From Amoebophrya sp. A120 (taxonomy: Eukaryota; Protista; Dinoflagellata), in assembly GCA_905178155.1 (NCBI GenBank), contig CAJINV010000005.1, positions 4,071,556 to 4,135,555 of the forward strand: a stretch of 64,000 nucleotides of DNA. The letters run 5' to 3'. The notes under the pieces are model-generated. The model was not told the origin of the DNA and did not search any database. It saw nothing but the letters and a program-made list of their open reading frames with translations. Shown one piece after another: positions 2,862 through 48,500 of this stretch (the stretch's first letter is position 1; each line of letters starts with the position of its first letter). The translations under genes and the position numbers were made by a program.

Positions 2862-5800
2862 CTACACTTGTTCTTCCTGGTCTCTGCAGGCCGCCAGGTG
2901 TCTCAACCTGGCGTTTAGCTGCTGTGTTTGCGGATCAAACTCCCGCGCCGCGGAAAGCAGGTCCGCCTCTATTTGGGGGATGAGCTCGTCCGCAGGGTCT
3001 TCATCTTCGCGGAGTTTCATCGAGGCCTTGGGAGAACCCGACTGCGATGCCACGTAGTCACTCAATTTCTCTCGCACACTATCCAATAGCGTCTCTGTGT
3101 TCACGTTGCGCATGCGGCACGATTCTGTTGCAAACGTCGCAGCACCGCTGAGGGGCGGGAGAACTGGCGGATAGGAGGTGGAATGATCCGGAAGCTGATC
3201 GCTGCTGTGGTCCTGTTCGGCACTACCAGCTTGCAGGAGCGGGGTCCCTGATCAAAGTTCGATTTCTTTGCGGTGGGGACTGCTCAGCACAACGTGGTTA
3301 GCACCGAGACAAGCAATAATGTTACTGTTACATATAGTTATTACTACGATGGGAAGGAGATCCATAACCACGAACCCAATGTGATGGATGCCGTATATAT
3401 AATCATGGTACGGCCACGGCGTTATCTGTTGAAGTGACATCCTTGAGAGCTCGTTGTACCACATCACGAACATCCATAGCAGAGTGCTGGTTCTTACCTT
3501 TGGCATTCGGTGTGGGTTCCTTTAGTTTTTTGTGTGCACCGCGAGGACGAGCAGCTGGGTGTGGAGGTGGTCCACCAGTTGTATTAATACCGTCGGATTG
3601 CGTATGCGACCTGAAATCGCGAATTTCCGCGTCTGACTGCACCGTCGTTGAGGATATCGAACCGTCCGCGTTGAAGTATAAAAGCGGCCGGTTCTTTTGC
3701 GGCTGCCGCTGCTCGCTGCGCTGCGAATTGTCTTGCTCGGAAGGAGCTCCCACGTATTGCTGTGAAGCTCCTCTAGCATTTTGCTTGTGGTTTTGACCCT
3801 GCTTGTTTTGATTCATCGTGGTCTTCGCGTAATGCACTGCATTGTCGTAAAGTTGCGAGGTGGGATTCAGGTGCTGCACCGGGACGAACTCTTGTGGCGG
3901 AGCCGGACTGGTGGCACTTCTGTTGGTCGAGATAGCTGGGCCAGCTGCGGCAGGCGATTGATTCGTTAATATCTTCCGCGACCGACTGCTGCTGCTATCC
4001 ACTGCTAAAAACATGTCCGGTGGACCTGCAGGGATGCGACCTTGTGATGCGGATTTCACATCACACAAAAATTTGTCATGCGAGGAAACCAAAAGTTGCA
4101 CAATTTTTGCCACCGATGAAAGAAGGGCTTTGTGATGCGAATCTTTGCGCTGCATTGCAAGAAAGAAACCTTCTCAAAGCCTGTAAAAATGCTAGGGCGT
4201 ACATGCCAGATCCTGCTTGTTCTGGCTCAGGCAAAAGCTGCATCACAAACCTCTGCATCCTTCTAGACCCAGACATATTTCTTGCAGTGGATAGCTGCTG
4301 CTACTGGACGATTGCAGCTGTTGCTGCGTCGTCCAGAGACCGTGCGTATCAAGTGTAAAAATGTCTGGGTCTGGAAGATTCTGAGATTTGTCGTGCATGT
4401 TTTGCATGACCCAGGATGTCTGTAATGCGCGACCGCGCATCACAGGTTTTGAGCTGGCTTCCTGATGCCTACTCCGCATGAGAAACGCCATCCCCGCGTA
4501 GCACAAACTAGACTCCTCTTGCTGGTCATGCAATACAGATTTTTCTAGAGTCCAAAGTTAGCATCACAAGTTCCAATCTTCCAGACCCAGACACTTTTAC
4601 ATTTGATAGTGCGTCATTCGTGTTCTCTCTGCGCCGTCCTCGTCGCCGAGCCCTACTGCTCTCTTGGGACGACCACCTCCCGGAGAACTACCTCCAACTG
4701 GAACTGCAGCATCGGTGCCGGTGCTGGTTGATGACACAATTGTCTCATGCTGGTGGTGGTGACGATGATGGTGCTCATGTTCTTGACGATGTCCGCCCGA
4801 AACTGCCACGCTAGTAGCATCGTCACCGTGCCCGTGGTGGTGGTGGTGATGATGCCGTAGCTGTTCATCTTGACCAGAAATCGCAGTTCTACTCTCGACA
4901 ACTGCACCTGCACCCCCCACGACCTGGGGGTTGTAAGATTGGTGGTGATGGTGATGATGTGTAGCGTGCATGTTCATCGCGCTTCCGTCCACCGAGGTAA
5001 CATGCTGCATCGCGGTGTCTAGGGGATTTTTCATGCCAATCTGCGTCATCATAGTTGTACTGCTGCTCGTCGCCGACGCTGACGCTGTCGCACCCCCGGC
5101 GACAGAAGACGACGGCCGCTGCTTGGGGCTGTGCCGCACCATCATCGGAGAGCCGCCGCTCGCCGGGCTGTAACTGAGAGTAGACGAGGCCGCGGCCGGT
5201 CCGCCCGCAGGAGAAGCATGGTAAGAACTCGTTGGACCAAAAGGGCTGGGACCGCGAGGTTGGACGACAGCGCTTTGTTCTTGTTGCTGTAGGTGATGTT
5301 CCTGATGATATTCTAATTGCCCCCCTGGCCCTGCGACGCGTGCCATAATTGCAGTTCCACCTGGCGCGGCGGAGCCAGCGAACTGTTGAGTTGTGGCACT
5401 CGAAACCCCGCCGCGGCTAATGCTTGATGAAGTGCCACCGCCTACCACATGGTTACTCGGGTTCTTGGCAAGCAGGTTTAGGTACTGCTGCCCGAGGGTC
5501 AAGCCTGGCCCTTCTGGGCTGCGGGCTGTCGGCGTCGTGGGAGAAAGCTGAGGGCCTCCAGACGTGGAAATCAAACTTCCGGGTGACGCGGCAGCGGCCA
5601 GACCACCAGCCCCCGGCGGCGCGAATAGGGTTCCCGTGCCCGTCGTTCCGGCAGGGTAGTGGACTCCCTCCAGCCAGTAGTTGCCGCTCAGCCTACGGTT
5701 GTCGTCGAGCAAGGGCTGTGCGAGCAGCTGCTTCACTTTTGACGGAATCTTCTTGTATCGCGACGGCTGGGTGAACGCGCGATTCAGGTGGGAAATCGAC

Positions 5801-11000: not shown

Positions 11001-11919
11001 TATGTGACAATCAAGGGAGTCAGGCTCTACTTAACTTGCTCGCGCCCTTCATTGATATGCACGACAGACACAGAGCCATACGTCCTGCCAGACAAGCATG
11101 ACACAAATCTTAGAAGACTGGCGGGACCACCTGCATCAGCGACTGACGATATCCAGCCAGCCAGTCAAATCTTGCAATCTTCCAGACTCAGACATATTTT
11201 GATTTCATACGGAGTGGATCAGGACGAAACCTTCGAGGCTGTCACTTCCGTCCGCCTCCCGGTCGATCATGTCGAAAATCTCTTCGCAATGTTTCTCGCC
11301 GGAGTGGAAGCCTTTTGCCTGATCATGGCGAATAAAAAAAGTAAAAGCAAGTACAACAAAATCGATTCTGCTCGTGCGCTACCGCCTCTTTCAAAGCCAT
11401 CACGCTGATTGCGTCTACTTGCAGAGGAACAGATAGAAGAGATGAGACGAGATGTGACTATTTCATTCTCATGCTGTGCGAGAAATGCGCCATCATGTGC
11501 GTCAGGTGCGGCGCAACCTGATCTTAGGCCACCTGCATGTTTCGGTGAACAAGCACAGATTTATTAATAATCCAAAACAAGAACAACTTATTTTATTTAG
11601 ATACCCAATTATTTCCTGCACCGCCACCCTCCTTACTGATGAAAATGTTCTCCGGGTTATACAGATCTGCATAGGACGAGTTTTGTATTGCATTGATGAC
11701 GCGCGGCTCGAGGTCGATGAGCAGTGCCCGCGGAATGTATTGCTCGTCATCCGCTTGGTAGAAGAAAACGTCTTTCCGATCGTCGGCCAAGTGCGTCGCG
11801 TAATCCTCCAAAATCCCCTTTTGGTTGATGCCATGCTCCGCGCAGAGCGTCTTCCAAAACTCCATACCAATCTGGTTCCCACATTGTCCCACCTGGAGCG
11901 TAATGATTTCTCGTGGCAT
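8009..11919 (-). CDS. TUBG1: Gamma-tubulin, 8 exons
   Basis: [18 protein letters not shown]..., GGGAGNNW|AKGF, HS|[13 protein letters not shown]|[14 protein letters not shown]|[48 protein letters not shown]|[23 protein letters not shown] introns at 11319-11604, 10249-10714, 9789-10021 and 9201-9639. Non-canonical introns at 10774-11210 and introners 8817-9129 and 8367-8575. Confidence 0.97.
8367..8575. mobile_element. Introner family 3 in gamma-tubulin
   Basis: TATCGTACGAAAAAAGTGTTTCACTGT ... ACAGTGAAGCAGTTTTTTCTTGCGATA; TSD GATCG; removal gives GLFD|RCIKQY. Confidence 0.93.
8817..9129. mobile_element. Introner family 2 in gamma-tubulin
   Basis: TATGGAGGCGTCAGAATTGAAATTGACAAAGTTG ... CAACTTTGTCGATTTCGATCCTGACACTCCCATA; TSD CTGCA; removal gives MVSCS|TRRGVY. 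Confidence 0.95.
10778..11209. mobile_element. Decayed family-1 introner forming a GT..GC intron of gamma-tubulin
   Basis: Right end TCTTCCAGACTCAGACATATTTTGATTTCATA, left end TGTCCAATGCAATTATG. The intron required to give HS|IAGG (10774-11210) is exactly element+5. Confidence 0.65.
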
Positions 11920-13449: not shown

Positions 13450-16177
13450 TCAGCAGGTGAAAAAGCCATAAGCGGCGTACAGTAGGCCGACAAAGCCGGT
13501 GTTTACGTAGTTCCAGCTGCTGGTATTCATGATGTACATGGCGAGGAGTACGCATATGAGGGCGTACATGCCTTTGATGCACGGGAAGCGTTGTACGAGG
13601 GTGATGGCCAGGGGGATAAACCCGAGCGAAAACTGGATCAGGAAATAGGCCTGCGGCATCGGTTCCGCGTACGAGCCCAGCGACAGGTAAGATAGGTGCG
13701 GGCTGCGCAGGGTCGCTTCCACCACACTCGCTATGGGAGCCGCGCTCGTGTCCGGGAGCCTTTGCGCGGTGATGGGAAGGTAGACGAGCGAAGCGGTCTG
13801 CAGGGCCAGCATCAGCAGAAACGTGCGCTCTTTCTGGAACAGCGTCCGCGTGAGGGGCCACGTCTGTGCAATTTTATATTTCTTTTTTGCCTACTTTACC
13901 AGAGTTGCTTCGAGTTGGAAAGTCGTGCGCAACAAGGATCAATATTTCAGAATTTTTGCATCGGAAGCACGATTGTTTTCGCTTTTCTGTATATTGAAAA
14001 GGAACGAAAAAGTTCAAAAAAATGATGATTTGCACATTCATTGGCTACGTCAGTCAGCTCTAAAAAAAAATAAATACGCTGGGATAGCGGATGACGTAGA
14101 CAACTCCGAGAACTAGGCCAAGAGTGTACTTGCCCAGGGTTAATGGCCATTGTGCTGTGAAGAGAAGTATCAAATGTAAAAGTGTCTGGGTCTGGAAGAA
14201 TGCAACTTGTCATGCTAAATCTGAAGCATGCAAAAATCTGTGTTGCATGATTGCCAAAAGTCGTCCAGTTTTGACCAAGTCGTGAGGGAGTTTCTCATGC
14301 AGGATAGGCATGAGAGAGATCGCACAGAATCTGTCGTGCTAGGTCCTGCATTCCAGGCCTCATGGGTCATGGAAAAGCTGCATGACAAATCGCGCATTCT
14401 TCCAGACCCAGACATATTTGCAATCCATAAGAAGCAGCATGAGGAGGAGCCAGCCGTGCCATCGGGGTTCGACAGTGAAGGTCTGCATTTGAAGAAACTC
14501 ATCGCGAATCTGTGAGGGCGCGATTTTGGGATTCTGAAAGTGGTACAGGCACTGCAGGCATACTAGCGTCGGCTCGATGCCTCGCAAGATGGGAATTGGG
14601 CTGAGACTATCGACTGCAAGAAAGGGTGTCTTGGACAGCAAAATAATATACTCAATTTATTTCGGTGGAGTTGAAGATATCGATCATTATCGTGACCATG
14701 AACAAGGACGACCCCTGTTTTCTGCATCTTGAGATGACTGCTTGTTCAAAGTCCACTTACTTTCTGCAAGAAGATCACGTTCCGACATAATTTCTATGTC
14801 CAGTAAAAAATGAGGACTGTGAACAAATCTATCACTTTTGGCGTTCGGGAGCGAAGCCCTCAGCTGAAAATGCATTTGCACAAGCCTTCCTCCCTACATG
14901 AGCTGTAAATCTGCTGAACCAACTGACATCCTTGTGTTCGATACGCCCCGCCTTCAGGGGTAACGGAGAGCTCAAAATCCGTCAGCCTGAAGTAACTCTG
15001 GAAAGCAACCATGGCAGCGTGCAGAACGTATACAAGGGGAAAACGATTTTGCCACCGTAATCTACTTGCGACGTCATGCACCGAGTCCCGCAAGACCAAG
15101 AGCAAGACGCGCACGTTCTTCATAGCGTGCGCGTTCCCGCCAGTAAAAACCTATTCGATAGCCATACACTCATGATTTGCCTTAAGGGCGGCGCACTGCA
15201 GATTTTCTCTCTACTGACACAAGCTAGTCCTAGTTCGTTGCATTTCGTGGTCATGATGATGGTGTCATGGGTAGAATTTGGGTGTCGTGAGACAAGAATT
15301 ACGGTGGTGCACGTGCAGTATCTGTGTGCGATAAACCCAGAAACCGCTTCAAAAAAGTACTGGTTCCGATAAGCGATTCATACGTGTACCTGTGGCAGTT
15401 GTGTACAAGTTTTTCTGTTCCTACAAATTTCCATGGATTTTGATTTTCTATTTTAATGGACTGTCTGTGATGGTTTCCCAGCGCACGTGCTGCTGCTGGT
15501 ACAACTTTGCACCCCCATGCTGGTGTCGAGAATTGCGACAGTTGTTTTTCTATCGCGAGAGATGAAACCTGACTAAGTACAACTAGCTCAGCAATTGAGT
15601 TTAGTGTGCACGAAAGAAAACAATATTGTAGTCCAGCAAACAACAAACAAAAATGAAAATTGTTCTATCTTTATCTTTTTCATTAGCATTACCCGAATAT
15701 AATGAGCATGCTCCCGATGAGGCACGTGCGCAAAAAGCCCGAGTACGGAACGAACCAGTGTAGTATTGCGCTTGTGATCAGTTGGTTGTTACTGCTGTAG
15801 GCGCCACTGGTCGGTGCTGCGGCGTTAGGTGTTGCGCTGGTATCGGCGCCGCCGCGTGTTGTGCTTGTTTCTGGTCCCCGCCCCGTTGGGGAGCTGACGG
15901 CGCGACTTAGGGAGTCCAGATTTAGAACCCATCCCCTGCTGGTGTCAACATAGCCATACCAGTCGAGCCACCAAACACCCCACATCATCAGGAAAAAGGA
16001 GAAGCAGAAGGGCGGCGCTTTTTTGGTTCGGCTGAACACATGCATCAGAGTAAACACGCTCTTACAGCAGTCTTTGCAGAACTGGGCCGGGCCCTTCTCT
16101 GCAGCCGGGTTCCGAACTGCCGACATAGGTTTTCTTTTCGCAGTTACGCTGGAATAAACAGGTTTGAATCTCGACAA
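13450..16177 (-). CDS. Multi-pass membrane protein of unknown function, multi-exon
   Basis: Hydrophobic ORFs 15689..16177, 14860..15123, 14360..14641 and 13450..13812. Introner removal gives WHGWLLLMLL|LFTAQWPLTLGKYTLGLVLGVVYVIRYPS, then GT-AG intron 13864-14077 joins in frame to TWPLTRTLF. Confidence 0.65.
14168..14429. mobile_element. Introner family 1 (right end of TATGG type)
   Basis: TATCAAATGTAAAAGTGTCTGGGTCTGG ... CCAGACCCAGACATATTTGCAATCCATA; TSD AGAAG. Confidence 0.95.
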
Positions 16178-17323
16178 TCTGTAAACAAAGGGGCTGCGAA
16201 TTCTGGTCGGAACAGAAATACAAGCTGCCTGAACAAAAGTAATACAACACGTCCTCGCATCTTTTACTTCTTACCTTGTTGGTGGTGGAGAGAAACTAAC
16301 CCTCGCGTCCCACGGACCCATGAGGGCAAAACTGGGAGTCTGAAAATGTATTTGACTGCTTGCGAGGAAAACGAGAAATAGATCACCTTATCTATACACA
16401 GCAGCTGCAGATCAGCCATGCCCTTTAACTCTACTATCGATGTCGGCTTCGGCAGATTGACATTGAAAAAATAGCATTCGATTCGGGCCCACTTGCTTCG
16501 GACTTGAATCCTTTTTATTGTACTAGATCTTATTCATTTACTGTGCTCCAGTTTCTGCAGAGCGGGCCCGGGGGCGTGAGGCTTATTGCAAAATCTAATG
16601 TTTCTTCGATCTTGTTTCCCGGCCAAATACAAATTCGAACACGATGCGCGAAAGAGGCCAGTACAAAGTCGGTCTCTTTGAGGAGGTCGAGAGCCCACCG
16701 AATGTTGTAGCCCTTCGGAGGCGGGTGCTTCTTGTGGAGATGAAGAAATAACATCGTAAAACTCCATATCCAATCGATGACAACCACAACTTCTTTTACT
16801 TGCATAATTTCCTGCAGAAAGTGTATAACTGCAATGGCACAACTGCAACTAACAATACTACTACTTACCCGACAGGCGGGCAGTTTGTAGGCAGAAGCCT
16901 CTCTTTTAGGCAGGGTATGCTGCGCATACGAAAAACGTTTATGATTTGTCCGTAGCGTCATAACACACACGAATATACAAAATACTTGTGTCGCAGTCCT
17001 AAACGTGGTGCAGGATTAGGGAAAGCAAACTCTAGTAAGTGGACTTCGAGTTGCGAACAATGCGTGCATGAATTACATTCTACGGAAGACGAAGAACTAT
17101 GCAGGGTGTGCAGAAAAAGAAAAGGAAAGCTTTATACTGGGAAAATTAACGAAAAGATGATGTATGTATGGTGAATGTGGCGCTGGTGCAACGAACTCGA
17201 ACTGCTAGTGCAACTGCAAGTGAATCATGTGATTAAACTGGGTATGACATGGAAATGGTGACACAAAAAAATCCGAGTTAACAGTGTGTGAACGCGGGCT
17301 GCTCGCTTCGGCTTCTTACTTTT

Positions 17324-19093
17324 TTACCAGATAAGAATGAGGTACACCAGGAACCACTCGCCTTTCTCCAGGGTACTGATGTTCTATAACCCTCTCAGGT
17401 GTTACAATCTCAAACGTTACAATAGAATATGGAAATCTGTGATGCAACAAGACTGCACGATCTAGCCAACTTTCATAGGATTGCGCATGACAAGTTCTGG
17501 AGTCCCAATCCGCACTACAATCTGGCGACATTTGTATTGCAGAAAGTGAAATGCTGTCCGAGTCTGTCATGTTCATCATGCAAGACAAATCTCAGACTCT
17601 ATTGCAACGCTTGAGATTGTAACACCTGAGCGGGTTATATGTTCACCTCGTTCTTCTTCTTCGGGAGCTTGTCCGTGAGGTATGCAATGGCGTCCTTTTG
17701 AAAGGCGATGGTGTCCTGATCCAACTCGGCTTATTACAATGAAAAGTGCCCCCATCCCCGAACTTGGAAGCGTTTGCATTGCAAACGTTTCCAAGTGAAA
17801 CATTCGCCCTCTTGCATCTATCAGCATCACAGGTTTCCAATCGTGAATACGAAAAGCAAAAATTTGTATTGCAAAAGACCCCAGCAAGAGCGGCGGTTGT
17901 CATGCAAGCGATGCGATACTTACACGCCTAGACTCTGCATCGGAAAGATTCATACTCCTTTCATGCATGACAAAAAGTTTTCATTTGGAAACTCCGCATC
18001 ACAAATTTTTGCAAATTCAGGGGTGGGGGGCACTTTTCACTGTAATACGGTTTGCCCCTTCTTCGGACTCGCTTCCCGCTCCTCGATTTTCTCCAGTGCC
18101 TTCAACAGCTTGCCCCGCACCCCGTCTTCCGTTTTATTACAGTGAAAAATGCCCCCACCCCCAAAGTTGCAAAAATTTGTGATGCGAAGATTCCAAATGA
18201 AAACTTTTTGTCATGCATGAAAGGAGTATGAATCTTTCTAATGCAGAGTCTAGGCGTGTATCGCATCGCTTGCATGAGAAGCGCCGCTCCTGCTGGGATA
18301 TTTTGCAATACAAATTTTTGCTATTCGCGATCGGAAATCTCTGATGCTGATAGATGCAAGAGGGCGAATGTTTCATTTGGAAAAGTTTGCAATACAAATG
18401 CTCCCAAGTTTGGGGGTGGGGGCATTTTTCATTGTAATACGTTTCGCGTTGGATTTTCTGGGCCTCCTTGATGAAATTCCGGTACATCTTTCGTTCCGCC
18501 TCCTGGTCAATGTTCGTGACGCCGTACTTGCACCGAACCACGATTTTGTCATCCTCCTCGTCTATCCACTCGAAAATCTGCAGCAGCGCACCCCCAGTGT
18601 CAACGAGCACGAACCGCAAGGCGTGAGTAATGTAGTCGCAGCCGTCCCTCTATCAAATTGAAAAACTGTGCCCCCGCCCCAGTAGATTTTATTTCAGAGA
18701 GCGTTTGTACTTCCAAGCCCCCACGACCCTTGATGGTGGAAAAACAAACTCGCAGCCCTGTGCAAGTAGTACTATGTCAGCAACGCGACTTTTCCTCCCA
18801 GAATAATCAAATTTTGCGCTGCCCAGAATAATCAAATTTTGTATTGCGCAGCGGTTCAACATCGTTTTCGTTAGCGATGTCTGTAATAAGGTGAGAGCCG
18901 CGCAACAAGCCTGGTCGGATTCTGGACCGAATCGAAACGAATGAATTTAGTATAGATACATCACATTCATGAGAAAGAGATTCTTCATGTGGAAGCTCTG
19001 CAAGGCAAACACTTCTTCTTTCTGGGGATGCGGAACAACTTTTCAGTGTGATAGGACCGCCATCATGCGCTTCTTCGTCGCTTCATCGTCCAT
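17324..19093 (-). CDS. Hypothetical protein split by four introner-derived introns
   Basis: Reconstructed MDDEATKKRMMA|RDGCDYITHALRFVLVDTGG...KIQRET|EDGVRGKLLKALEKIEEREASPKKGQT|ELDQDTIAFQKDAIAYLTDKLPKKKNEVN|ISTLEKGEWFLVYLILIW*. It may instead splice on into the coding-like ORF 16530..16970. Confidence 0.7.
17385..17639. mobile_element. Introner family 6
   Basis: TATAACCCTCTCAGGTGTTACAATCTCAAACGTTACAATAGA ... TCTATTGCAACGCTTGAGATTGTAACACCTGAGCGGGTTATA; TSD TGTTC. Confidence 0.93.
17732..18047. mobile_element. Introner family 4
   Basis: TATTACAATGAAAAGTGCCCCCATCCCC ... GGGGTGGGGGGCACTTTTCACTGTAATA; TSD CGGCT/CGGTT (1 mismatch). Confidence 0.93.
18135..18439. mobile_element. Introner family 4, inverted relative to 17732-18047
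   Basis: TATTACAGTGAAAAATGCCCCCACCCC ... GGGGTGGGGGCATTTTTCATTGTAATA; TSD CGTTT; interior is a close reverse complement of the neighbouring copy. Confidence 0.95.
18651..19053. mobile_element. Decayed family-4-like introner, now a GT-AG intron (18650-19057)
   Basis: Ends TATCAAATTGAAAAACTGTGCCCCCGCCCC / GGGGATGCGGAACAACTTTTCAGTGTGATA. No TSD match, but the in-frame GT-AG intron is exactly element+5. Confidence 0.75.
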
Positions 19094-21256
19094 CCTCGAG
19101 GATTCGGATTCTTGCACCCAAAGCCGCGTGGATACAGTTTATGGCCTGGACAAAAGAGCGAGCAATTGTATCTGGCACGTGATGTTGCAACTTACTCGGC
19201 AGCAAGCACTACGACCACAAGCAACGGGAGAGCGCAGCCGGCTCCGTGGAGTGCCGGTCTTTCTTTCTAGCAACTCAGCTGGTACGCGAATAAAACACTA
19301 CAATCTTATCAATTTACGCGCCTTGGGTAAAAGCTGTAAAAAATAGGGGAGCAACTTGGGATGGTGTGAACAAGGGCAACTGTAATTGGGTAATATTCAA
19401 TTTCATTTACAATTGTTTGGAGGCTACAGTTTCGGAGTCGTACATAATTCGGGTCCCACTTGTAGTTGCACGTCGACCACGACCTTGTCAGAGCAGAACG
19501 AAATCGGGTGTAGTACGATAAAATAATGTTTCCGCACGAGCGAGACGATGACTTTAATTCGTAGTCAGACACGTGTTGGAAGAGCTCAAGAATTTACGTC
19601 TGTGCGAACAGTGTAGGCCTTCCTTTTGTTCCTTCTCCACGCCTGTCTTATCTACAGCTGTACCTTTCAGTTTCATCTTCTATCTGATTCCGTTTCCGTC
19701 TATGTTGATGTTCCTTTAGGATTACGACCGAACCGGAGAGGAGGAGAGATACTACTTGTACGTGGGGCTATATTCGAACGGCGTGTGACCGCACGATGAA
19801 CACGTTCTTGCTGAGGAAAGCGATAGCGAGAACGAATTTTACCGCGATACGGACATAGACACTGAATCATGTGTCTTTGTCACGACGACCTTGGTGAACT
19901 CTGCTGTCAAGAGCGACAGCACAGTGGCCGCGGGTCGCGAATTACGATCACGATGACGAGGGTGATTTATGTACTGGAAAAGACCAAAATTAAAGCACAG
20001 AGAAGTTTTGAACTTTGTTGAAGTTAAAAGAGAGAGAATGACGTAGGTGGAGTACGTAAATATGAATAATGTGGCCACATATTAATCTAGACTACTGCGA
20101 TGCGCGTATTGTGGGGGCTGGGGACTTCTGCCCTCAGGGTCCCGCAGGCTCTGGCCGGGTCGCTGTTCTGACCTAGAACATAGGCAACCCGGAGCCTGTG
20201 GGTGCTCGCGTAAGTAGAATCAAGGTCATGCGAATGGCACACCGAGGGTGCCGGCTCACTACCATTCGCTGAAACTACTACCGTCCGCAACCAACTACTT
20301 TCGCGCAATTAGAATGACTATAGTCTACTTATAGTGTGTATGTATTTCTATAGTGAGTATGTGAAAATGAAAATGATGTAAAACAAAAACCAGAATGCCA
20401 CGCACTAGAGCGAAGCATTTGCGAAGGTGTACGGATCTATGTGTGTCATGCTTGATCATGTAATTTGTGATGCGTGGGATCGAAACTGGTGCATTTTCAA
20501 ATTTAGTAGAACAGATCTTTTCTCGATCCCAATCTGTCCATTGCGAAGCTGAAATTAGATCTTTATGAGATAAAAGCTACAATTTGATCTAGAGTGTAAT
20601 GCTGGAAATATGAATGTCAATTTTGTACCACTTGGTATTTTTTAAAAAATAAAATAAGAATATAAGTGGGGAGATTACTCCACCCAAGGTAAATACTAGT
20701 ACACTTCTCACGCATATTTACAGTTGCCCAAAGAAAGGCGAAGACGACGAGACTGGGAACATGCATGCATATACAATGTCTGAGCCTAAACTTCGGGCTA
20801 CAGCAGTACGGGCGTTTATTTCACTCAACTTGTTCCCTACACGCTGCGTAAGCGCAGCCCTGGTTGCAAGACAAAGCCATTTTTTGTATGAAATTTAATT
20901 AGAATTAGAGCACGATGACGCGGGTGAGGCACGGGAGCAGCAGCGGGTCCTGGCGCTGCAGCGGCTCGTGCTGTTGCAGCAGCTTCTCCTCTGTGGCGGC
21001 CCCCGCCCTGCTCGCCAAGTCGTTGGCGAAAGTTCACCGGGCGGAGTTTCATGAGTGCCGCGCCTATCGTCCCGCGGATAATGTTGCGGGCGTCGCGTGT
21101 CTTCAGCCCATGGTCCACGTACAGCTTATTTTGGACCTCCTTACTAGTGATCTGATTGTCCCGGCGGTACATCCCGGCTCGCTTGAGCGTACTGTTGCAC
21201 GACAGAGTTGGACGAGGGTGTTTACAGTTTGCATGGACGGAGGACCGATTAGCGCT

Positions 21257-22992: not shown

Positions 22993-23280
22993 GGTCTGCG
23001 AATTTTCAAAATTTTATTTTTTATTGGCTGCGAAGGTATGCAAGGCTCGACCGTCTCAACAATTCTACCCTGTTTTTGGCTGCAAAGGTCCGCGGAATTT
23101 CAAAGTTTTATTTTTATCGGCTGCGAAGATCCGCGAAACTTTAAAGTTTTATTTTTATCGACTGCGCGGGTCCGCGAAATTTCAAAATTTTATTTTTATC
23201 GACTGCGCTGGTCCGCGAAATTTTAAAGTTTTATTTTTATTGGCTTCAAAGGTCCGCGGGGTTTTGGCTTTCTATTTTCT
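22993..23280. repeat. 41-bp minisatellite
   Basis: Units resembling CGCGAAATTTCAAAATTTTATTTTTATCGACTGCGCTGGTC start at 23091, 23132, 23173 and 23214, with a partial at 23255 and a degenerate unit near 22997. Confidence 0.9.
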
Positions 23281-24814: not shown

Positions 24815-24880
<66 letters not shown>

Positions 24881-26099: not shown

Positions 26100-29000
26100 T
26101 CATGCTTGATATGAGGACCGTGCTGAGGCTCCGGAAGCGCTCCGTGGTCTCGTCGCAGAAGGTTCACAACGATGAACCGTTTGACCCACAACAGCGGCAG
26201 CACTCGCATCGCCGTCCACCACGGAACAAACGCATGCAGCTGCTTGAGTACTTTGTTCATCACCGAGCACCACGGAACTTCTTAGCTGGCACGAAAGTTC
26301 ATAAGGTTGAATTTGGGCACCGATTCGAACATCTCCACCATCGAGCCGGCGTATCAAAGTGCACCACAACTAAACTTACATCTTCCGCGGTCATCATTAC
26401 ACGCAAAGTTGCAAAGAGCCAACAACTTCTGTCGCAGCAGTTTTTTTTTCTTTTCTGCGCGCCGGCACTGCATAAGTAATTGCATGACCAGCACCAGGGG
26501 ATGAAATCGAAGTGCAAGTGATACAACAACTGTTACTAGGATTCAAGTCCTCCTACAAAATCGAGCGAAAGGAGAGAGGGTGTAAGAATTCTTGTTATGC
26601 ACTCTGATATGGCGCGATCGTGCAGCTCGCTGGACCCTTTTGCGATGGCGGTCTGACCCATGTCCCACATGTCCCCCATGCGGCCTTCCATGAGGTCCAC
26701 GTCATAGGAAAAGTGCAGATATGGATTGTAAAAATGTCTGGGTCTGGAAGATTGCAACTTGTCATGGTAAATCTGAAGCATGCAAAAATCTGTGTTGCAT
26801 GAGTGCCAAAAGCTGTCCACTTTTGACCAAGTTGGAACGGAGTTTCTCATGCAGAATAGGAATGCCAGAGGCTTCGCAGAGTCTGTCATGCTAAGTCCCG
26901 CATTCCAGACCTCATGGGTCATGGAAAATCTGCATGACAAGTCTACACTCTTCCAGACCCAGACATTTTTACATTTGATAGCAGATACTGTTTGCCGACC
27001 CGAAAGGGCATGATGGACTTGCCCCCCCGCCGGGCCAGGATGGACTGGCACTCTTCCTTGCAGAAGTGCGACTTCTATCAACTGTAAAAATGTCTGGGTC
27101 TGGAAGAATCCAACTTGTCATCCTGATTTTGGATTCTAAAAAAATCTGTATTGCATGAGCAGCAAAGAGAGTCCAAGTGTTGCTACACGGAAAGAGCATT
27201 TGCCATGCGATGTAGGCATCAGGAAGCCCTCACAAAATCTGTGATGCTAGGGCATGCATCACAGACATCAGGAGTCATGCAAAACGTGCATGACAAACCT
27301 GGCAATCTTCCAGACCCAGACATTTTTACATTTGATAACTTCAGCGTGACCACGGGGTTCGTGTTCTCGAAGTTGAAGCCCAGTTTTCGCTCCACGTCCC
27401 TGCATATCAAATGCAAAAGTGTCTGGGTCTGGAAGGTTGAAACTTGTGATGCGCATTTCACAACACAGAAAAATCTCTCATGCATAGGCAGCAAAAGTTG
27501 CCCATTTTCTGTCACCAAAGTCAGAGACTTGTCATGCGGATTCTGCATTGCGAACGCTTCTCGAGACCTGTGATGCTAGAGCTTCCATGCCAGACCTTCT
27601 GTGTCATGCAAAAGCAGCAGGATTCTTCCAGACCCAGACATTTTTACATTTGATACTGAAATGCACCCCGTCTCCCTCGGCTTGCATCTCGTGGCTGACC
27701 TGCCGGGGGTATCAAATGTAAAAATGTCGGGGTCTGGAAACTTGTAATGCTGCGTTGGGAATAGTGAATGCTCTGTAATGCACAGGCACGCATGAGAAAT
27801 ATCTGCGCTGCTTTGTGTTGCGTTTTTCGCATGAGAAACTGCGTTTTTGCATGACAGGCAAAAGCGTCTCTTCTTGGACACACACCACAAACTTTTTTAT
27901 CATGCCAGACAAGCATGACAAGTCTCGCAATCTTCCAGACCCAGACACTTTTACATTTGATAGGGGGCGCACCGCAAACCGCAGCAGGAACAGGTAAAGC
28001 CCAGCCGCTGTGAAGAAGTAGCCTAAAAACTTGTCCAGCGGGAACCTCGAGGCGGCGAGGATGTCCGCAATCTTATCCTCCTCCTCCGGGGTCAGATGCG
28101 TGTCGCAGAGAAAAGAGCTAGCACGGCACAATAAATTGATGCAAAAACAAACAGATACATGAAAAGATCTGCGCTGCATAGCATAAACACCCCCCTCGTC
28201 AGGGCATTTTACAATCAAATGATCCCCTACCAGCTTTTTTCTTTTTGATAGTGTGAGAGCTTGATTTGTAACTGGTTAAAAAACTTCTCGGTTCGGTACT
28301 GCCACCACGGTATGCTGCCAGCGAGGAACCCGATGATGACGGCGAACATCTCTAGTGACACCACGGAAAGCCTATGGAAGCGTCAGGATTGAAATCGTCA
28401 AAGTTGAAATAATTTTAATTTGTGATACATAAAATGCAACCCGCAAAGCGCCTGTCTTGCAGAGTAGGCAAGGGAGGCATATTGCAAGCCTGTTGAGGGG
28501 CAGAAATAGAGCTGCTAAAGTAGCATGACAAAAGGCGTCTTCCTTACCCAAACAGCATTACAAACTGGATTTAGGCACCACCAAACTTGTCATGCGCCAC
28601 TTGAAAACTGGGCTCCAACTGGCATCCATTTTATGCATGACAAACTATTTCAACTCTGTCTCTGACGATTTCAAACCTGACACATCCATAAAGCCGCGCG
28701 CTCGTGTAGAAGGTCAATTTCGACGACATCAGGTGCAAATATTTCTGGCTGAAATACATCCACACGGCCCACAGGATCAGATTCCAAAACAGCAAATGTA
28801 TGAATGTCGGGCAGGCCAGGTATGACCTGTCAAGATCGATTGTTAGCAAGGATCTTCTTATTTCTTAGGGCGGTTGATTTACTTACTTATTTGTTTCTTC
28901 AGTTCGATCATCTTCAACCAGCAGCCACTTTGGGGCCTTGAACCTTTGATGCCGCGCCCAGGCTGCACAGGGAAAAAGAAAAGATAAAGAAGATATTTCA

Positions 29001-32000
29001 TGACGCAATTCCGTTTTTAAGCAGAAGGACGCCACCCGAGGGAGGTTTTGAAGGAGTTATATATGTTTATGAAGTGAGAGTGACAAATAAACTACACTTA
29101 CATCAGCACACAGCAGAGCGGTAGTGTGAAGTTGACCGCGTAATCCCAGGCGAGGTAAACCATCGGCGGCTCGCAGTGCAGCTCTGCTTTCCTGACCTCT
29201 TGAATACGGGCTGACCATACGTCGTCCGTGAAGGGAATAAACGAGTTATACAGCCGCAACAGCCGTCGCAGGACGTAACCGGTGAGCGGCCAAAGCAAAT
29301 ACGGCATCAGAAAAGTGCCCGGTACCAGAAGCTGTAGTCGAGAAATTTATTGAGTAACGCATCTTCAAAGTCAACATGATATTGCGCACAATTATCTCCT
29401 TATCATGCCTGGATCTGGAAGTTCTTAGCCAGTTAGTTTTAGTTGTGAGCTGCTTCGTCAGCCAAATAATTCTCAAAATTATATTTTAGCTGAATTTTGT
29501 TATCGTCTTAGCAAAAACATGTTTTGAGGTCGAAGCAAAATAGGAGACAGAAGTAATGCTTTGCTTTACCTCATACAGTTGCTTGCCCAAATAGGTTTCC
29601 TCTCCTAAAGCGTCCTTGTCTCGCTGCTCGGCCTTTTCGCCGAAAAACACTTGGCCAAACACGATATAGACAGAAAAGCCGGTGTTCAGGACAAAAAGTG
29701 CGGAATAGCTGATCATGACCACAAGCCACTGCGACCTGCGGTAGCGGAAGGGGAGGGCGACAGCGATGTACCAAAACATGAGTCCAACCACACCGTTGCC
29801 ACTGGAAAAAAGGATCTATCCTGCGCAAAAGCGCACTTGCTACCCAAACCAGTACCAGATCGTTTTCACCTAAATTTGCATGCCCAGGATGTGTCAAGTC
29901 GTGGGTGGCCCGCCCACGAGAAGCATTTTGGTGCTTGGAGGACGTTTGTCATGCATTGAGGAAGCAATCAGACTGCGCAACTTGTTGACGTAGCTTCACT
30001 AGTACCCATTCACGACCGCACTGCCAGTTTGCACGGGTCATGTTGCGCAACTACAGGCAAAACTTCTCGACTCGTGACGCGAAGTTTCCATCTTGACCAT
30101 GCTGGTGTTGAGGGTACTACGTATTTACACGAGATAGGATCCCAAGAAAGGTCATGGCCCATCCCGAGGGCACGTTCGCAGACTCCTGCAAGGAGTTGAG
30201 AATAAAGACGATCGCCGGCGCATACATCAAGAGACCGTACAACACAATCTGGATCACGAACCGGATCGGGCCGCCTATCCAACTTTCGTAGAAGGACTTC
30301 GATGTGTCGAAGTTGCCCCACAAAATGTCGCCTGGTTCCACGTTGTGCTATCGTGTAGAAAAAAACTTTAATCACGTAAAAAGAATTAGAATTACATTTT
30401 ATGCTACAACCACATGCAAAATATAGTTGGTTGTGTCTTGCAAGAAGTGCACGGTTTGATTCTCAGCATGGAACAAGGGACCCAACCATCATCCCCGCTG
30501 GCCGCGTATCCTCGTTCATGCTCTACCCAACGGGATCAACATGATGCTAGCACTTTTCCACGCGATATGTGCCGCTCGAAGATCATAATCGGAAATGCGT
30601 CCTCCAATGCTTTGCGTGTAGCCGCCGCACTGCTGAGAGCGGAAGGCGCGGAGGGCGGTGCTGCAGAGCGGGCACTGCGAAGGCGAATCTCCTCGAGCTC
30701 GGCGGGAGAAAAACGCTCAAATACCTTGCGCTGCTCCGCCTGCAGTCGCTGCACACACACATCCACATCCTTTTCGTAGTCACAAAAACAATACACCGCC
30801 CCCCCGCACTCTCCAGGGAAAAAACCGCGCTAGTAGTGTACCTCTAACTTCTTTTTGGGTGGCAACTGCAGCTGCAGCAACACCACCAGCATGCGCATGG
30901 TGCATGTTCTGCCTCACAAATAAAACCTGCCACACGGCAAAAAATCTTTTATGCGAATAAATATTTGTACGCTAGAAAAAATGCTGCGGTGTTGAAAAGC
31001 TACATTAGGGGTACTCAACTACACAGTTTTTTTGTGTGATAAGGACGGCATTTGCCGCAACTCCTCACGCAGCTCCTCGATCTGCTCCTCCGTAAAATCC
31101 GGCGCAACCAGGCCAACCTGCAGATCCCGAGCGGTTTCTTTGTAGAGGCCACCGCTTCGCGGTCTTTGATGATTCGCAAAATGATTTTTTGAAACTAACA
31201 TAGACATACAACATTCATAATCATTTTCATTGGACAACTTTATTCCGCATAAGAATAAGTATGAGTATCTGCAATACACTGACATATTTCCGCATTTCTG
31301 GATCCCGTTCCTGCGCGGCCAATAGGTCAAGGCTCGGCGCGCCGGCGGGTTGGAGTAAAGCGGATCCCTGGGGGACCGCCGTTGTGAGTCCAGAGCTGTG
31401 GTCACTGAGCTCGGTGGTGACTTCTATCTCTTGCTTTTTGCTCTGTGCCACTGCGTCCCGCAGCTGTTTTCCGGTGGGCGTGAGAAAGCACAAGAAAAAC
31501 TCCTGCAAATACAGCCAGCTCCAGGGAAACCGGTAGTCGGTAATCTGCAGCTCGCGTGCTGAGGCGGAGCCCGTGCTGTTCTGTCCCGACAGAAACTCTT
31601 CCCGTTCCGCATCGTACACAGGTATACTGTGCTCAGGCGATATTACAATCTCTGCGTTTACAATGAAATAACTGTGATAAGTTTGTCGCGTGCTCCTGTC
31701 GTGAGCATCGAAAGCAATGTCTGAGTCTGATAGACATTTTGACTTGTTTCCGTCACTCACATACAAACTTCGGGAGATGAGATCAGGGCGGCAATTTTGC
31801 GATTGCGCTTCCGAGAGTTCTTGCGTTTACGATGCACATCGGTATCAAGAGAGTACAACCGCGACTGAGACTGAGGGGTCAAGCAACCCGATCTGCATGA
31901 GTAGCAGCAGCCAAAGAAAAAAGGAATCTGTAACAGCAGAGCCTGTAACACCAACGCGAGCTGTAACAGTTTTGAGCACCTTCTTGTCCGCGCGGGCAGG

Positions 32001-45500: not shown

Positions 45501-48500
45501 GAGCAGACCGTGTTGCTTTATTCCGGTCCGTCTCGTCATCAGACGAGAACTCGTCATCGGGGTCTTCCGCAGCACCGCACGCTAATATGCCTTACAAGAA
45601 AAATGGGTCTCCGTCTCATAGGATGCAAACTTGTGATGCGGATTGATTCTGGAGGAACCCGAACGGCCAGAAATCAGTGTGACGTAGCCAGCAAAAAATG
45701 CTGTGCGAGTATTTTTGAGCGCAGGAGAGGGCATCTCTCATGCGCAGGACCAGGCATGGAGAAGCTGGAGCGTCCTCCGAAACCGAATTTGTGTTTGTCC
45801 TCCTCTGTGCGCATTTTTAGAGACCTTCTTGTAGATCGATGCAGATGTTGCAAAATAAACTGCATTTACATAGTACCTGCTTTCTTCCAGCAGGAGACCC
45901 AAACATATTTGCAGTTGATACATGGGCAGCACCAGGCGCAACAATGTCCGAAACCCTCCACCAAGCGTTTGATGGTGGAGCTCTTCTTCTTGGCAGACTG
46001 GTACCAGGAGGCATACACGTTTATCGCAAGAAAAAAGTGTTACAGTTACACACTGTGTTGCAAGACCGGCAACACAGATAACCTCTCTCATGCGGGAAAT
46101 GCTTGGGATCCTTCTTCCTGTTTTCCCTTGTGACCTTCGCATTACAAGTTTTCCCTGCCACACAGAGAAAATTTGTGATGCAGAAACTCCAACAAATGTG
46201 TAACGGTAACACTTTTATTTTTCTCGTGATAACGTTCCGGCGATCCTTGCTATCTTCGTAGTGCCGAAGGGCGTCGTGGGCGTCCGCGAGCGCGGGCACG
46301 ATCTGCACGGAGAGGATGTTATGGGAGCGTCAGGATCGAAGTCGACAAAATCGAAAAATTTGTAATGCACAAAATCGATGTCACTGTCAGTTAGAGATAG
46401 AGCCTCAGTTTCCAAGTGGCGCATGACAAATTTCGGGAGCACCCAAATCCAGTCTGTCATGCTGTTTGGGGAAAGAAGACTGCTCCTGTCATGCTACTAT
46501 GGCAGCGCATTGCCTTTCCCTAAACAGGCTTACAATCGGCCTTATTTGCCTGCTCCCCAATACAGGCCTCCAGTGCCCTACATTTTACGCATCACAAGTT
46601 TTTCGATTTTGTCGATTTCGATCCTGACACATCCATAGATGTTGCGGTAGCCGTAGTCCTGCCGCAGGATGCGACAGAAATCGGAGGCGGACAGCTTTTG
46701 CGCCTCCTGATCCTTTGGCAGGCCCGTGCACAGGAGCGTGTACATCTGCGCGAACTGGGTGATATCCTGCGTAACCCGTCGTCGCTTGTCGTGGTCTATC
46801 AAATGCAAAAATGTCTGGGTCTGGAAGAATGCAAGTTTGTCATGCTTGTCTGGCATGACTCGAGAATCTGTGTTGCACAGGCACGAAAAGGCCCTCTTAC
46901 CTGTCATGCAAAAACGCAGTTTGCCATGCGGAATACGTAAGACATGGCAGCCAAAAAATTTGTCATGCGTAGCTGCGTATTGCAGTGCGTCTATCATTCA
47001 CTTTTAGCATTACAAGTTTCCAGACCCAGACATATTTGCAATCCATATGGTCCTGCTTTATGCGGCGCCCAAAATAGAGAAATAGGAAGAACAGCAACGC
47101 GGACTCGAAAAAAAACAGGCAAAACCCGAACCCAAGCTGCTCCGTGGTGTTTATTCCGCCCACCTGCTGGGTCGTGGTGGCGCCAAGAAGGCGACTCGTC
47201 TGAAGTGATGTTCCGAGGACGACGTCCTGTGCGCTCGACGTGGAGGTCGTGCTGGTCAGTAAAGTTCTGCTGGGCTGCAGCCCGTGCGCAAGAAGGGCGG
47301 CAGTACTCGTATGCTGCAACTGGTCCTCACCGGCCAGGGACATATTCGAGACGACGCCGCGGGCCGCCGCCGCGTCCCGAGGCAGTTCTTGCACCGCTGC
47401 GCCAGCAGGTCCAGTTAGGTCGTAGGTGCTGGTGGCGCTTCCCGAGGTGCCGGTCGTGGCCCCGTCGGAGGAGGACGATCCCGCGAAGGCGCGGGCGGCA
47501 ATTTGCGTCAGCCACAGGGTGAGCTCCCACACATACACACACAACTGCTGCAAAACCACCAGGAAGTACTTCTGCAAGAAGTAGACGAACTGCACAAGCA
47601 GATGGTTGGCGAGCGGATGACCGTGCAAAAAGGACAGCACCCAGTCCAAAACGAACGCGCACCCGAAGGCCTGCGCGAGCCGCCACAAAAAACTCAAGTA
47701 CCCGAGCGGAATGAGGGCGACGGGATGGGAGCGGTCGATAGTGAAGAAAATCTGGAACAGAATCCACTGGTAGGGGCTCTTGAAGTGCTTGTTCAACAGC
47801 TCAAACCGGTTTCTTCGGTGGAAGAACACGGCGGAGAAGTTATTTTGTTCGCCCCCTCCCGTTATCGCGGCCTCCGCCACCTCACCGCCTCGCTCAATCT
47901 TTTCTCCTCGGATCCAGTCCCAGATCTCCTGTTCTGTCGCATCAATTATCCACTTTTTTGATGTTTCTTCTGTGGCCGGTTGATGTTCTCCTATCAAATG
48001 TAAAAATGTCTGGGTCTGGAAGATTGCAACTTGTCGTGCTAAATCTGCAGCATGCAAAAATCTGTGTTGCATGATTACCAAAAGTCGCTCAATTTTGACC
48101 AAGTCGGGAGGTAGTTTCTCATGCAGGATAGGCATTAGAAAGTTCTCGCAGAATCTGTCATGCTGGCTCCGGCATTCCAGACCTCATGGGTCATGAAAAA
48201 AGCAGCATGACAAATCGCGCATTCTTCCAGACCCAGACATTTTTACACTTGATATCTCCGCTCTGGGGCTTATTCACCAGTGTCTGCCGTTCGGCCGGCT
48301 CCTGCGTCAGCGCGGCGTCCGCAGAGTCAAGAATACCTTCCCCAGGAAGCCGTGGCGTGTTCGATTCGCTTGACGGCTTGGAGGATGCGGTCTGGTGCGT
48401 CCCTAAGACACCACCTCCTGGCGAAGTTCCAGCTCCCAGTACAGCGGCCGGGGCGCTCCCGCTGAGTCGCTCCTGTTGCAGGAGCGCACTCGTCGTGGTG

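Follow-up and report, generated by a model that had tools for sequence, protein, structure and literature searches.

Introners are usually pictured as hairpins that join the two ends of one intron. What, then, selects the right partner when two introners of one family lie side by side in opposite orientation and each end could also pair with an end of the neighbour? This question is raised by a gene in the 64,000-nucleotide stretch of Amoebophrya sp. A120 DNA analysed here (the window), in which two such elements, A and B, enclose a short coding exon. The introners of this strain have been described as repeated, hairpin-forming, non-GT-AG introns with terminal repeats made of TAT, 7 nt and an A-run, bordered by 5-bp direct repeats, and 29,850 elements were counted (Farhat et al. 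2021, PMC7789003). According to the same source, more than 60% of Amoebophrya introns are without GT-AG and U1 snRNA is apparently absent, the mode of splicing being posed as an open question. Its searched text holds no treatment of adjacent copies, orientation or skipping (the words "adjacent" and "skipping" each occur 0 times), and a search of open-licence PMC and bioRxiv brought up no Amoebophrya paper that deals with inverted neighbouring introners, with skipping or with circles.

Two inverted introners enclose a coding exon

The host gene is encoded by the minus strand at 17320-19093 (ends approximate) and has five exons and four introners, called U, B, A and D in transcript order. Its strand was set by a codon score and by the public protein, strand calling from ORF length being unreliable and leaning to the plus strand. 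Read across the RNA joints, the encoded protein (P0001) comprises 156 residues and matches a public record of Amoebophrya sp. A120 without a single difference; in the gene model of this record, A and B are already spliced out. The sole other protein match, an AT5 protein at 77%, is gap-free at all four insertion sites; no Pfam family above the cut-off and no Atlas match above TM 0.36 was found for the host protein.

Element A, the transcript's downstream intron, occupies 17732-18047 (316 nt) and B, the upstream one, 18135-18439 (305 nt); both are minus-strand introns and each has TAT...ATA terminal inverted repeats matching at 19/20 positions. B belongs to the family of A and has the opposite orientation. 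Indeed, when A is aligned with the reverse complement of B, 280/316 columns are identical (88.6%), with 25 substitutions, 11 gap columns and longest perfect runs of 48 and 34, as against 62.9% identity in direct orientation. The alignment bears out the coordinates and the opposite orientation proposed in the initial annotation, which had also called the two elements near-identical; the likeness is real, but its degree is ordinary for the family. A 22-nt terminal-repeat motif has four matches in the window, namely the four ends of A and B, and 0 in 100 shuffles.

The flanking duplications (TSDs) are as earlier described, CGG[C/T]T for A and CGTTT for B. The outer copy of A, CGGCT at 17727-17731, matches the inner one, CGGTT at 18048-18052, in 4/5 positions, and the inner copy's letter is kept in the mRNA; the outer CGTTT of B at 18440-18444 and its inner copy at 18130-18134 match 5/5. 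Between the two elements lies a spacer of 87 bp, a length previously ascribed to the exon itself. In the mRNA the exon contributes 82 nt, because one TSD copy departs with each intron. This coding exon maps to 18049-18130 on the minus strand, with borders that can slide within the duplications, and specifies residues 83-109. The AT5 ortholog retains the exon, and 23/27 of the residues are identical.

The exon is retained in RNA and each introner leaves separately

Runs X1, X3, X6, X7 and X9 were compared with the window, and joints were read from assembled contigs, which drop rare forms. X1 has the properties of DNA from this strain (even depth of about 27-fold, kilobase pieces with 0 differences), with A and B at high copy and U single-copy; X7 sampled the same material at lower depth and has no spliced joints. 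In X6, one 1006-nt contig at depth 10.4 carries 4/4 joints of the gene, skipping 260, 321, 310 and 408 nt, and the listed exon pieces contain 0 other letters. In X3, a single contig of 2454 nt (depth 163) spans all four joints, and its length equals the computed joined length. X9, a wild metatranscriptome from a separate study, contains the two joints that border the exon, at depth 2.6. Where differences are listed within A and B, they stem from other family copies. The exon is included and each intron precisely excised on its own in contigs from three RNA runs and two studies. The initial annotation had named a silent gene as the case against its reading; the RNA joints in X3, X6 and X9 show that the gene is expressed.

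No joint that skips the exon or goes back at it was present in X6 or among the 15 rows listed for X1, X3, X7 and X9. As to the suggested check of inclusion against skipping, inclusion is assembled in three runs and no skip appears among the listed joints, while rates are not derivable from contigs. Inclusion is therefore the assembled form, for which contig data give no share, so that appreciable skipping is possible. If the exon were skipped, the reading frame would change after residue 82, and the protein would terminate after 27 other residues and lose its conserved C-terminal half.

Upstream of the start codon, the X3 contig continues for about 1.5 kb (19100-20576) without any joint. This extension crosses a low-copy repeat (DNA depth 55-130) and may be either an extended leader or read-through out of the adjacent co-oriented gene.

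A neighbouring intron supplies the cut register

In the RNA joints, exactly five flanking nucleotides depart with each of the four introns; for instance, the skips of 321 and 310 nt correspond to 316+5 for A and 305+5 for B. The position of the cut is fixed by U, the first intron (18651-19053, minus strand), whose terminal repeats match 15/20 and whose flanking 5-mers match 1/5. Its joint, 18646>19055 in X3 and X6, does not slide and places the excised stretch exactly at 18647-19054, with one cut a single base before and the other four bases after the terminal repeat (-1/+4). Splicing of U thus needs no TSD matching. The -1/+4 register rests on this one informative intron of the four, the others permitting it among 4, 6 and 7 options. 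Under this register, A is excised as 17728-18048 (joint 17726>18048) and B as 18131-18440 (joint 18129>18440), each with five flanking nucleotides and each with its joint in X3, X6 and X9. D, the last intron (17385-17639, minus strand), is of a different family, has a perfect 5-bp duplication and is removed as 260 nt, with the joint 17378>17639 in X3 and X6.

None of the possible cut registers, four for A and six for B, gives GT..AG, and the canonical ends of U2 introns are absent. A preference for introns starting with GT was considered, A and B both having GT at -1, and was rejected: the base at -1 is evenly distributed (G4 T4 A4 C3) in the 15 elements of confident strand. A preferred cut register may already appear in figures 3 and S19-S23 of PMC7789003. 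U, single-copy in the DNA run X1, looks old, and non-slidable introns of its kind can give the splice register genome-wide.

Predicted folding favours a duplex that would skip the exon

The fold of 17720-18450 supports the A:B duplex of about 300 bp that had been proposed to loop out the exon, with a predicted energy of -508.8 kcal/mol, 289 A:B pairs and z = -40. Folded separately, the two introns reach a predicted -243.8 kcal/mol, so that the nested duplex would be favoured by about 265 kcal/mol. When the whole pre-mRNA is folded, U forms 15/20 and D 19/20 of their own terminal pairs, and A and B 0/20. Since A and B keep none of their own pairs, a finished, equilibrated pre-mRNA spliced by end pairing would skip the exon. 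The 35-nt ends taken alone do not discriminate between partners, with -52.8 and -50.0 kcal/mol for the own pairings, -48.1 for the outer and -51.2 for the inner one.

The RNA contradicts this prediction. Because the duplex is predicted to be far stabler and yet the exon is kept in RNA, equilibrium pairing is excluded as the chooser of splice partners, and the usual picture of a hairpin joining intron ends cannot hold at equilibrium at this locus. Folds of the growing transcript behave differently. The predicted probability of B's own stem is 0.99 up to 133 nt past the end of B and 0.00 from 138 nt, at both 37 and 20 C; in these prefixes, the terminal stem of B prevails as long as no more than about 46 nt of A have been made, and at 51 nt it has disappeared. 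With B removed, A is predicted to form 19/20 of its own terminal pairs.

A and B are independent insertions of one abundant family

A and B carry all five marks of A120 introners that were tested: a terminal inverted repeat of 8-20 nt (19/20 in both), a border direct repeat of 3-5 nt (5/5 in B, 4/5 in A), TAT followed by seven variable bases and at least three A at all four ends, repetition in the genome, and non-canonical removal from RNA (joints in X3, X6 and X9). The repetition is evident in DNA run X1, where bins reach summed depths of 16,000-20,000 as against about 27 in unique DNA, and 27 contigs of the DNA run have other flanks at the end of B. A metagenome scan gave 47 loci with the terminal motif and 39 full elements, 31/39 with a perfect 5-bp duplication.

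In one metagenome assembly, 25 copies are at least 80% like A. The identity of A and B, 0.886, compares with medians of 0.886 and 0.912 to these foreign copies and is equalled or exceeded by 13/25 and 22/25 of them. A clade of A and B is rejected by the tree (p-AU 0.0007; 0% of 200 bootstrap trees), which omitted the 11 loci lacking a full element and 14/39 full metagenome elements (less than 80% identical to A). The two are therefore not sister copies, as their mutual identity is no higher than the family level. Local duplication or gene conversion between them was likewise rejected, since at none of the 11 checked variant positions do A and B share a private departure from the family majority. 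Collectively, these data show that A and B are two independent insertions.

A covariation of ends at repeat position 15, which is G/G in A and A/A in B, was not borne out by the 27 copies compared (14 A/A, 10 A/G, 2 G/A, 1 G/G). In a search for a further inverted pair, none of the 34 metagenome loci with a long hit contained a second one, and neither an empty-site allele nor an ortholog nor an exon match was found in the metagenomes. Elements whose terminal repeats are similar also lie side by side in another Amoebophrya-like assembly, at distances of 70 and 38 nt (L004:10-722 and L035:65-722).

Competition between outer ends is general, the long duplex is not

Scanning the window for TAT...ATA elements gave 35 candidates, or 31 after removal of four nested or cross-paired ones, as compared to 0-1 in three shuffles. 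The 31 elements are 209-403 nt long, and all have TAT...ATA ends, as the scan required; perfect flanking 5-mers are present in 25/31, cases that the scan favours. Of the element pairs, 10/465 are at least 85% alike, three of them in opposite orientation, and the 16 neighbour pairs less than 800 nt apart include one such opposite pair (A/B) and one direct. The direct-orientation control is provided by the same-family neighbours 47992-48254 and 48625-48887, which are 91% alike with outer ends matching 19/20.

Irrespective of orientation, outer ends match at 17-19/20 positions in 5/16 neighbour pairs. Competition between outer ends, on which the initial annotation had built its argument, thus exists, but it is not caused by the opposite orientation, since both ends of an element are alike and four further pairs match at 17-19/20. 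Such competition is general, and the long duplex alone is special to A/B: the predicted gain from joint folding is 229-242 kcal/mol for A/B and 3-29 kcal/mol in the other four outer-end-matching pairs. A rough estimate from the 29,850 elements suggests about 70-140 inverted neighbour pairs in the A120 genome.

Other parts of the window are also rich in introners. Eight of them lie within 4.2 kb at 26352-30567, including four consecutive elements at 26720-27962 that share one terminal repeat and are separated by 95, 67 and 54 nt; their wrong outer ends match no less closely than the right ones. A canonical GT-AG intron (3247-3497, minus strand) resides in the same gene as introners 3996-4293 and 4347-4608, and the 48-nt exon between these two is kept in X3. 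At about 11100-11210, a partnerless end resembles the terminal repeat of the commonest family and possibly belongs to a truncated or composite element. Apparently intergenic DNA contains a 41-bp tandem repeat of 4.4 copies (23078-23258) and (GA)32 (24815-24879).

How the splice partner could be chosen

Since the exon is kept despite the predicted duplex, removal or locking of the first intron likely follows its synthesis almost at once. We favour an explanation by timing, to which we give about an even chance: B would be excised or committed within about 135 nt of further transcription, before A can invade it. Co-transcriptional order, already suggested in the initial annotation, is thus the most plausible way out as judged from equilibrium folds of transcript prefixes. 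B, transcribed first, would fold on its own ends and would be cut out or locked by protein before enough of A had been transcribed to invade it; once B was gone, A would pair its own ends and be spliced separately, and the exon would be saved. The machinery would read the base of the terminal stem, and late transcripts would occasionally yield a frameshifted skip together with an 82-nt circle.

Yeast spliceosomes reach 50% spliced at 45 nt past the acceptor (PMC6548502); a window of about 135 nt is sufficient on this scale. On the other hand, Euglena nonconventional introns are reported to be removed later than spliceosomal ones, perhaps post-transcription (PMC6221363), which counts against timing. 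A search for RNA-level selection on terminal stems gave a null result, with 30 G.U-compatible against 27 A.C changes (p = 0.40), strand calls in this test being noisy (5/31 called plus, at least one in conflict with other strand evidence). It follows that the stems may serve transposition and not splicing. A more far-reaching proposal, which we find rather unlikely in its entirety, is that the machinery ignores splice-site sequence and TSD alike, sets its cuts at -1/+4 relative to the base of the terminal stem, acting within about 135 nt of further transcription, inverted neighbours serving as a clock and late transcripts giving the skip and the 82-nt circle. If this is true, the frameshifted skip and the circle would be the first direct products of an unexplained splicing route.

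The initial annotation had also considered the differing TSDs as a barrier to skipping. A machinery that accepts only two ends with the same flanking 5-mer would fit the match of 5/5 in B and 4/5 in A as against 3/5 in the skip pair, the exact loss of five flanking nucleotides with each of the four introns, and the perfect 5-mers of 25/31 window elements (favoured by the scan) and 31/39 metagenome elements. We nevertheless consider such guidance very improbable: U is spliced exactly at a 1/5 match, below the 3/5 of the skip pair, the five bases that stay in its mRNA code for residues that are conserved in AT5, while drift is seen in the removed copies, and a fixed -1/+4 cut suffices for scar-free removal. 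Moreover, two direct repeats in an RNA are unable to base-pair with one another. The neighbouring intron U thus both argues against TSD matching and supplies the cut register. It is scarcely credible that one element was flipped between its near-symmetric ends during assembly, in which case there would be no duplex. The internal orientation of A rests on the window assembly, no DNA piece among those listed spanning this element, but the symmetry of the ends extends no further than about 25-35 nt, and diagnostic positions distinguish them. In addition, an X1 DNA piece (18414-19995, 0 differences) confirms the right end of B, its end type and its flank, family pairs occur in both orientations in the window, and long reads were used for the A120 assembly (PMC7789003).

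Skipping or back-splicing could be frequent, as with inverted Alu pairs, and remain hidden if the frameshifted mRNA were degraded and the 82-nt circle escaped poly(A) libraries. In animal cells, this architecture drives the circularisation of exons (PMC4201285); the skip is out of frame here, minor forms are lost from contigs, and the nested duplex has its predicted advantage of 265 kcal/mol. We judge this improbable in view of the listed contig joints, which contain no skip or go-back form, and of the included form in X3, whose depth of 163 is like the 159 of the stretch's other well-covered gene, although contig depths cannot rank genes. A and B have also been resident long enough to acquire private changes, and their duplex is not eroded faster than the family average. 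A further possibility, which we doubt but take seriously, is that the single-stranded terminal motif (TAT, seven bases, A-run) is recognised by proteins or by an altered spliceosome lacking U1, and that the nearest 5' and 3' ends, about 200-400 nt apart, are then joined; the duplex would be held open by helicases or RNA-binding proteins, and timing would be secondary. Exons of 54-110 nt, however, bring a wrong 5' end near each 3' end, the Euglena signature has paired motifs at a fixed distance from the cuts (PMC12501133), and U, single-copy and with its duplication decayed to 1/5, still pairs 15/20, which suggests that pairing outlasts mobility. Reading of the motif by proteins would agree with the null G.U/A.C asymmetry, with the TAT...ATA ends (required by the scan) and the 209-403 nt lengths of 31/31 window elements, with the absence of a base preference at -1, with the presence of most spliceosome proteins and no detected U1 snRNA in A120 (PMC7789003), and with late removal in Euglena (PMC6221363).

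As a natural experiment, the A/B locus rules out one simple model and makes a second less likely, and it points to a cut register and to a time window. Inverted pairs let models based on timing, pairing and proteins be separated with existing RNA reads.

Comparison with known systems

As elements, A and B are no different from the A120 introners described in PMC7789003. That source reports splice sites that are variable relative to the hairpin, whereas here U fixes -1/+4. The A/B pair resembles inverted Alu pairs (Liang and Wilusz 2014, PMC4201285) in that like repeats in opposite orientation flank a short exon and could form a long duplex; complementary repeats on both sides of the exon, the IRAlu-type mark, are present. 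Unlike the Alu pairs of that report, A and B are whole introns with their own terminal repeats and without GT-AG sites, and no circle or skip is found among the listed contig joints.

Euglenid nonconventional introns, as reported in PMC12501133 and PMC6221363, are alike in being transposon-like, with paired ends and slidable direct repeats. In both systems, the cuts are asymmetric at a fixed distance from the paired motif, N3/N5-6 in Euglena and N1/N4 here (PMC12501133). The euglenid motif is CDG/CHG, that of A and B is TAT/ATA, the lineage is different, and the signature N3-CDG...CHG-N5-6 given in PMC12501133 is absent from the A/B ends. The late removal reported for euglenids (PMC6221363) is also the opposite of the timing proposed here. 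The longer overhang is on the 3' side in both U (1/4) and Euglena (3/5-6; PMC12501133), with a difference of 2-3 nt in unrelated lineages; speculatively, this shared bias may be a convergence on a stem-end cutting geometry.

A and B also have the marks of MITEs: they are short, too short for a transposase, high-copy, occur in either orientation, and have terminal inverted repeats and a target duplication of fixed length. Unlike MITEs, introners are removed scar-free from RNA. The locus is a chance product of an abundant family and represents a known class of element, not a new system.
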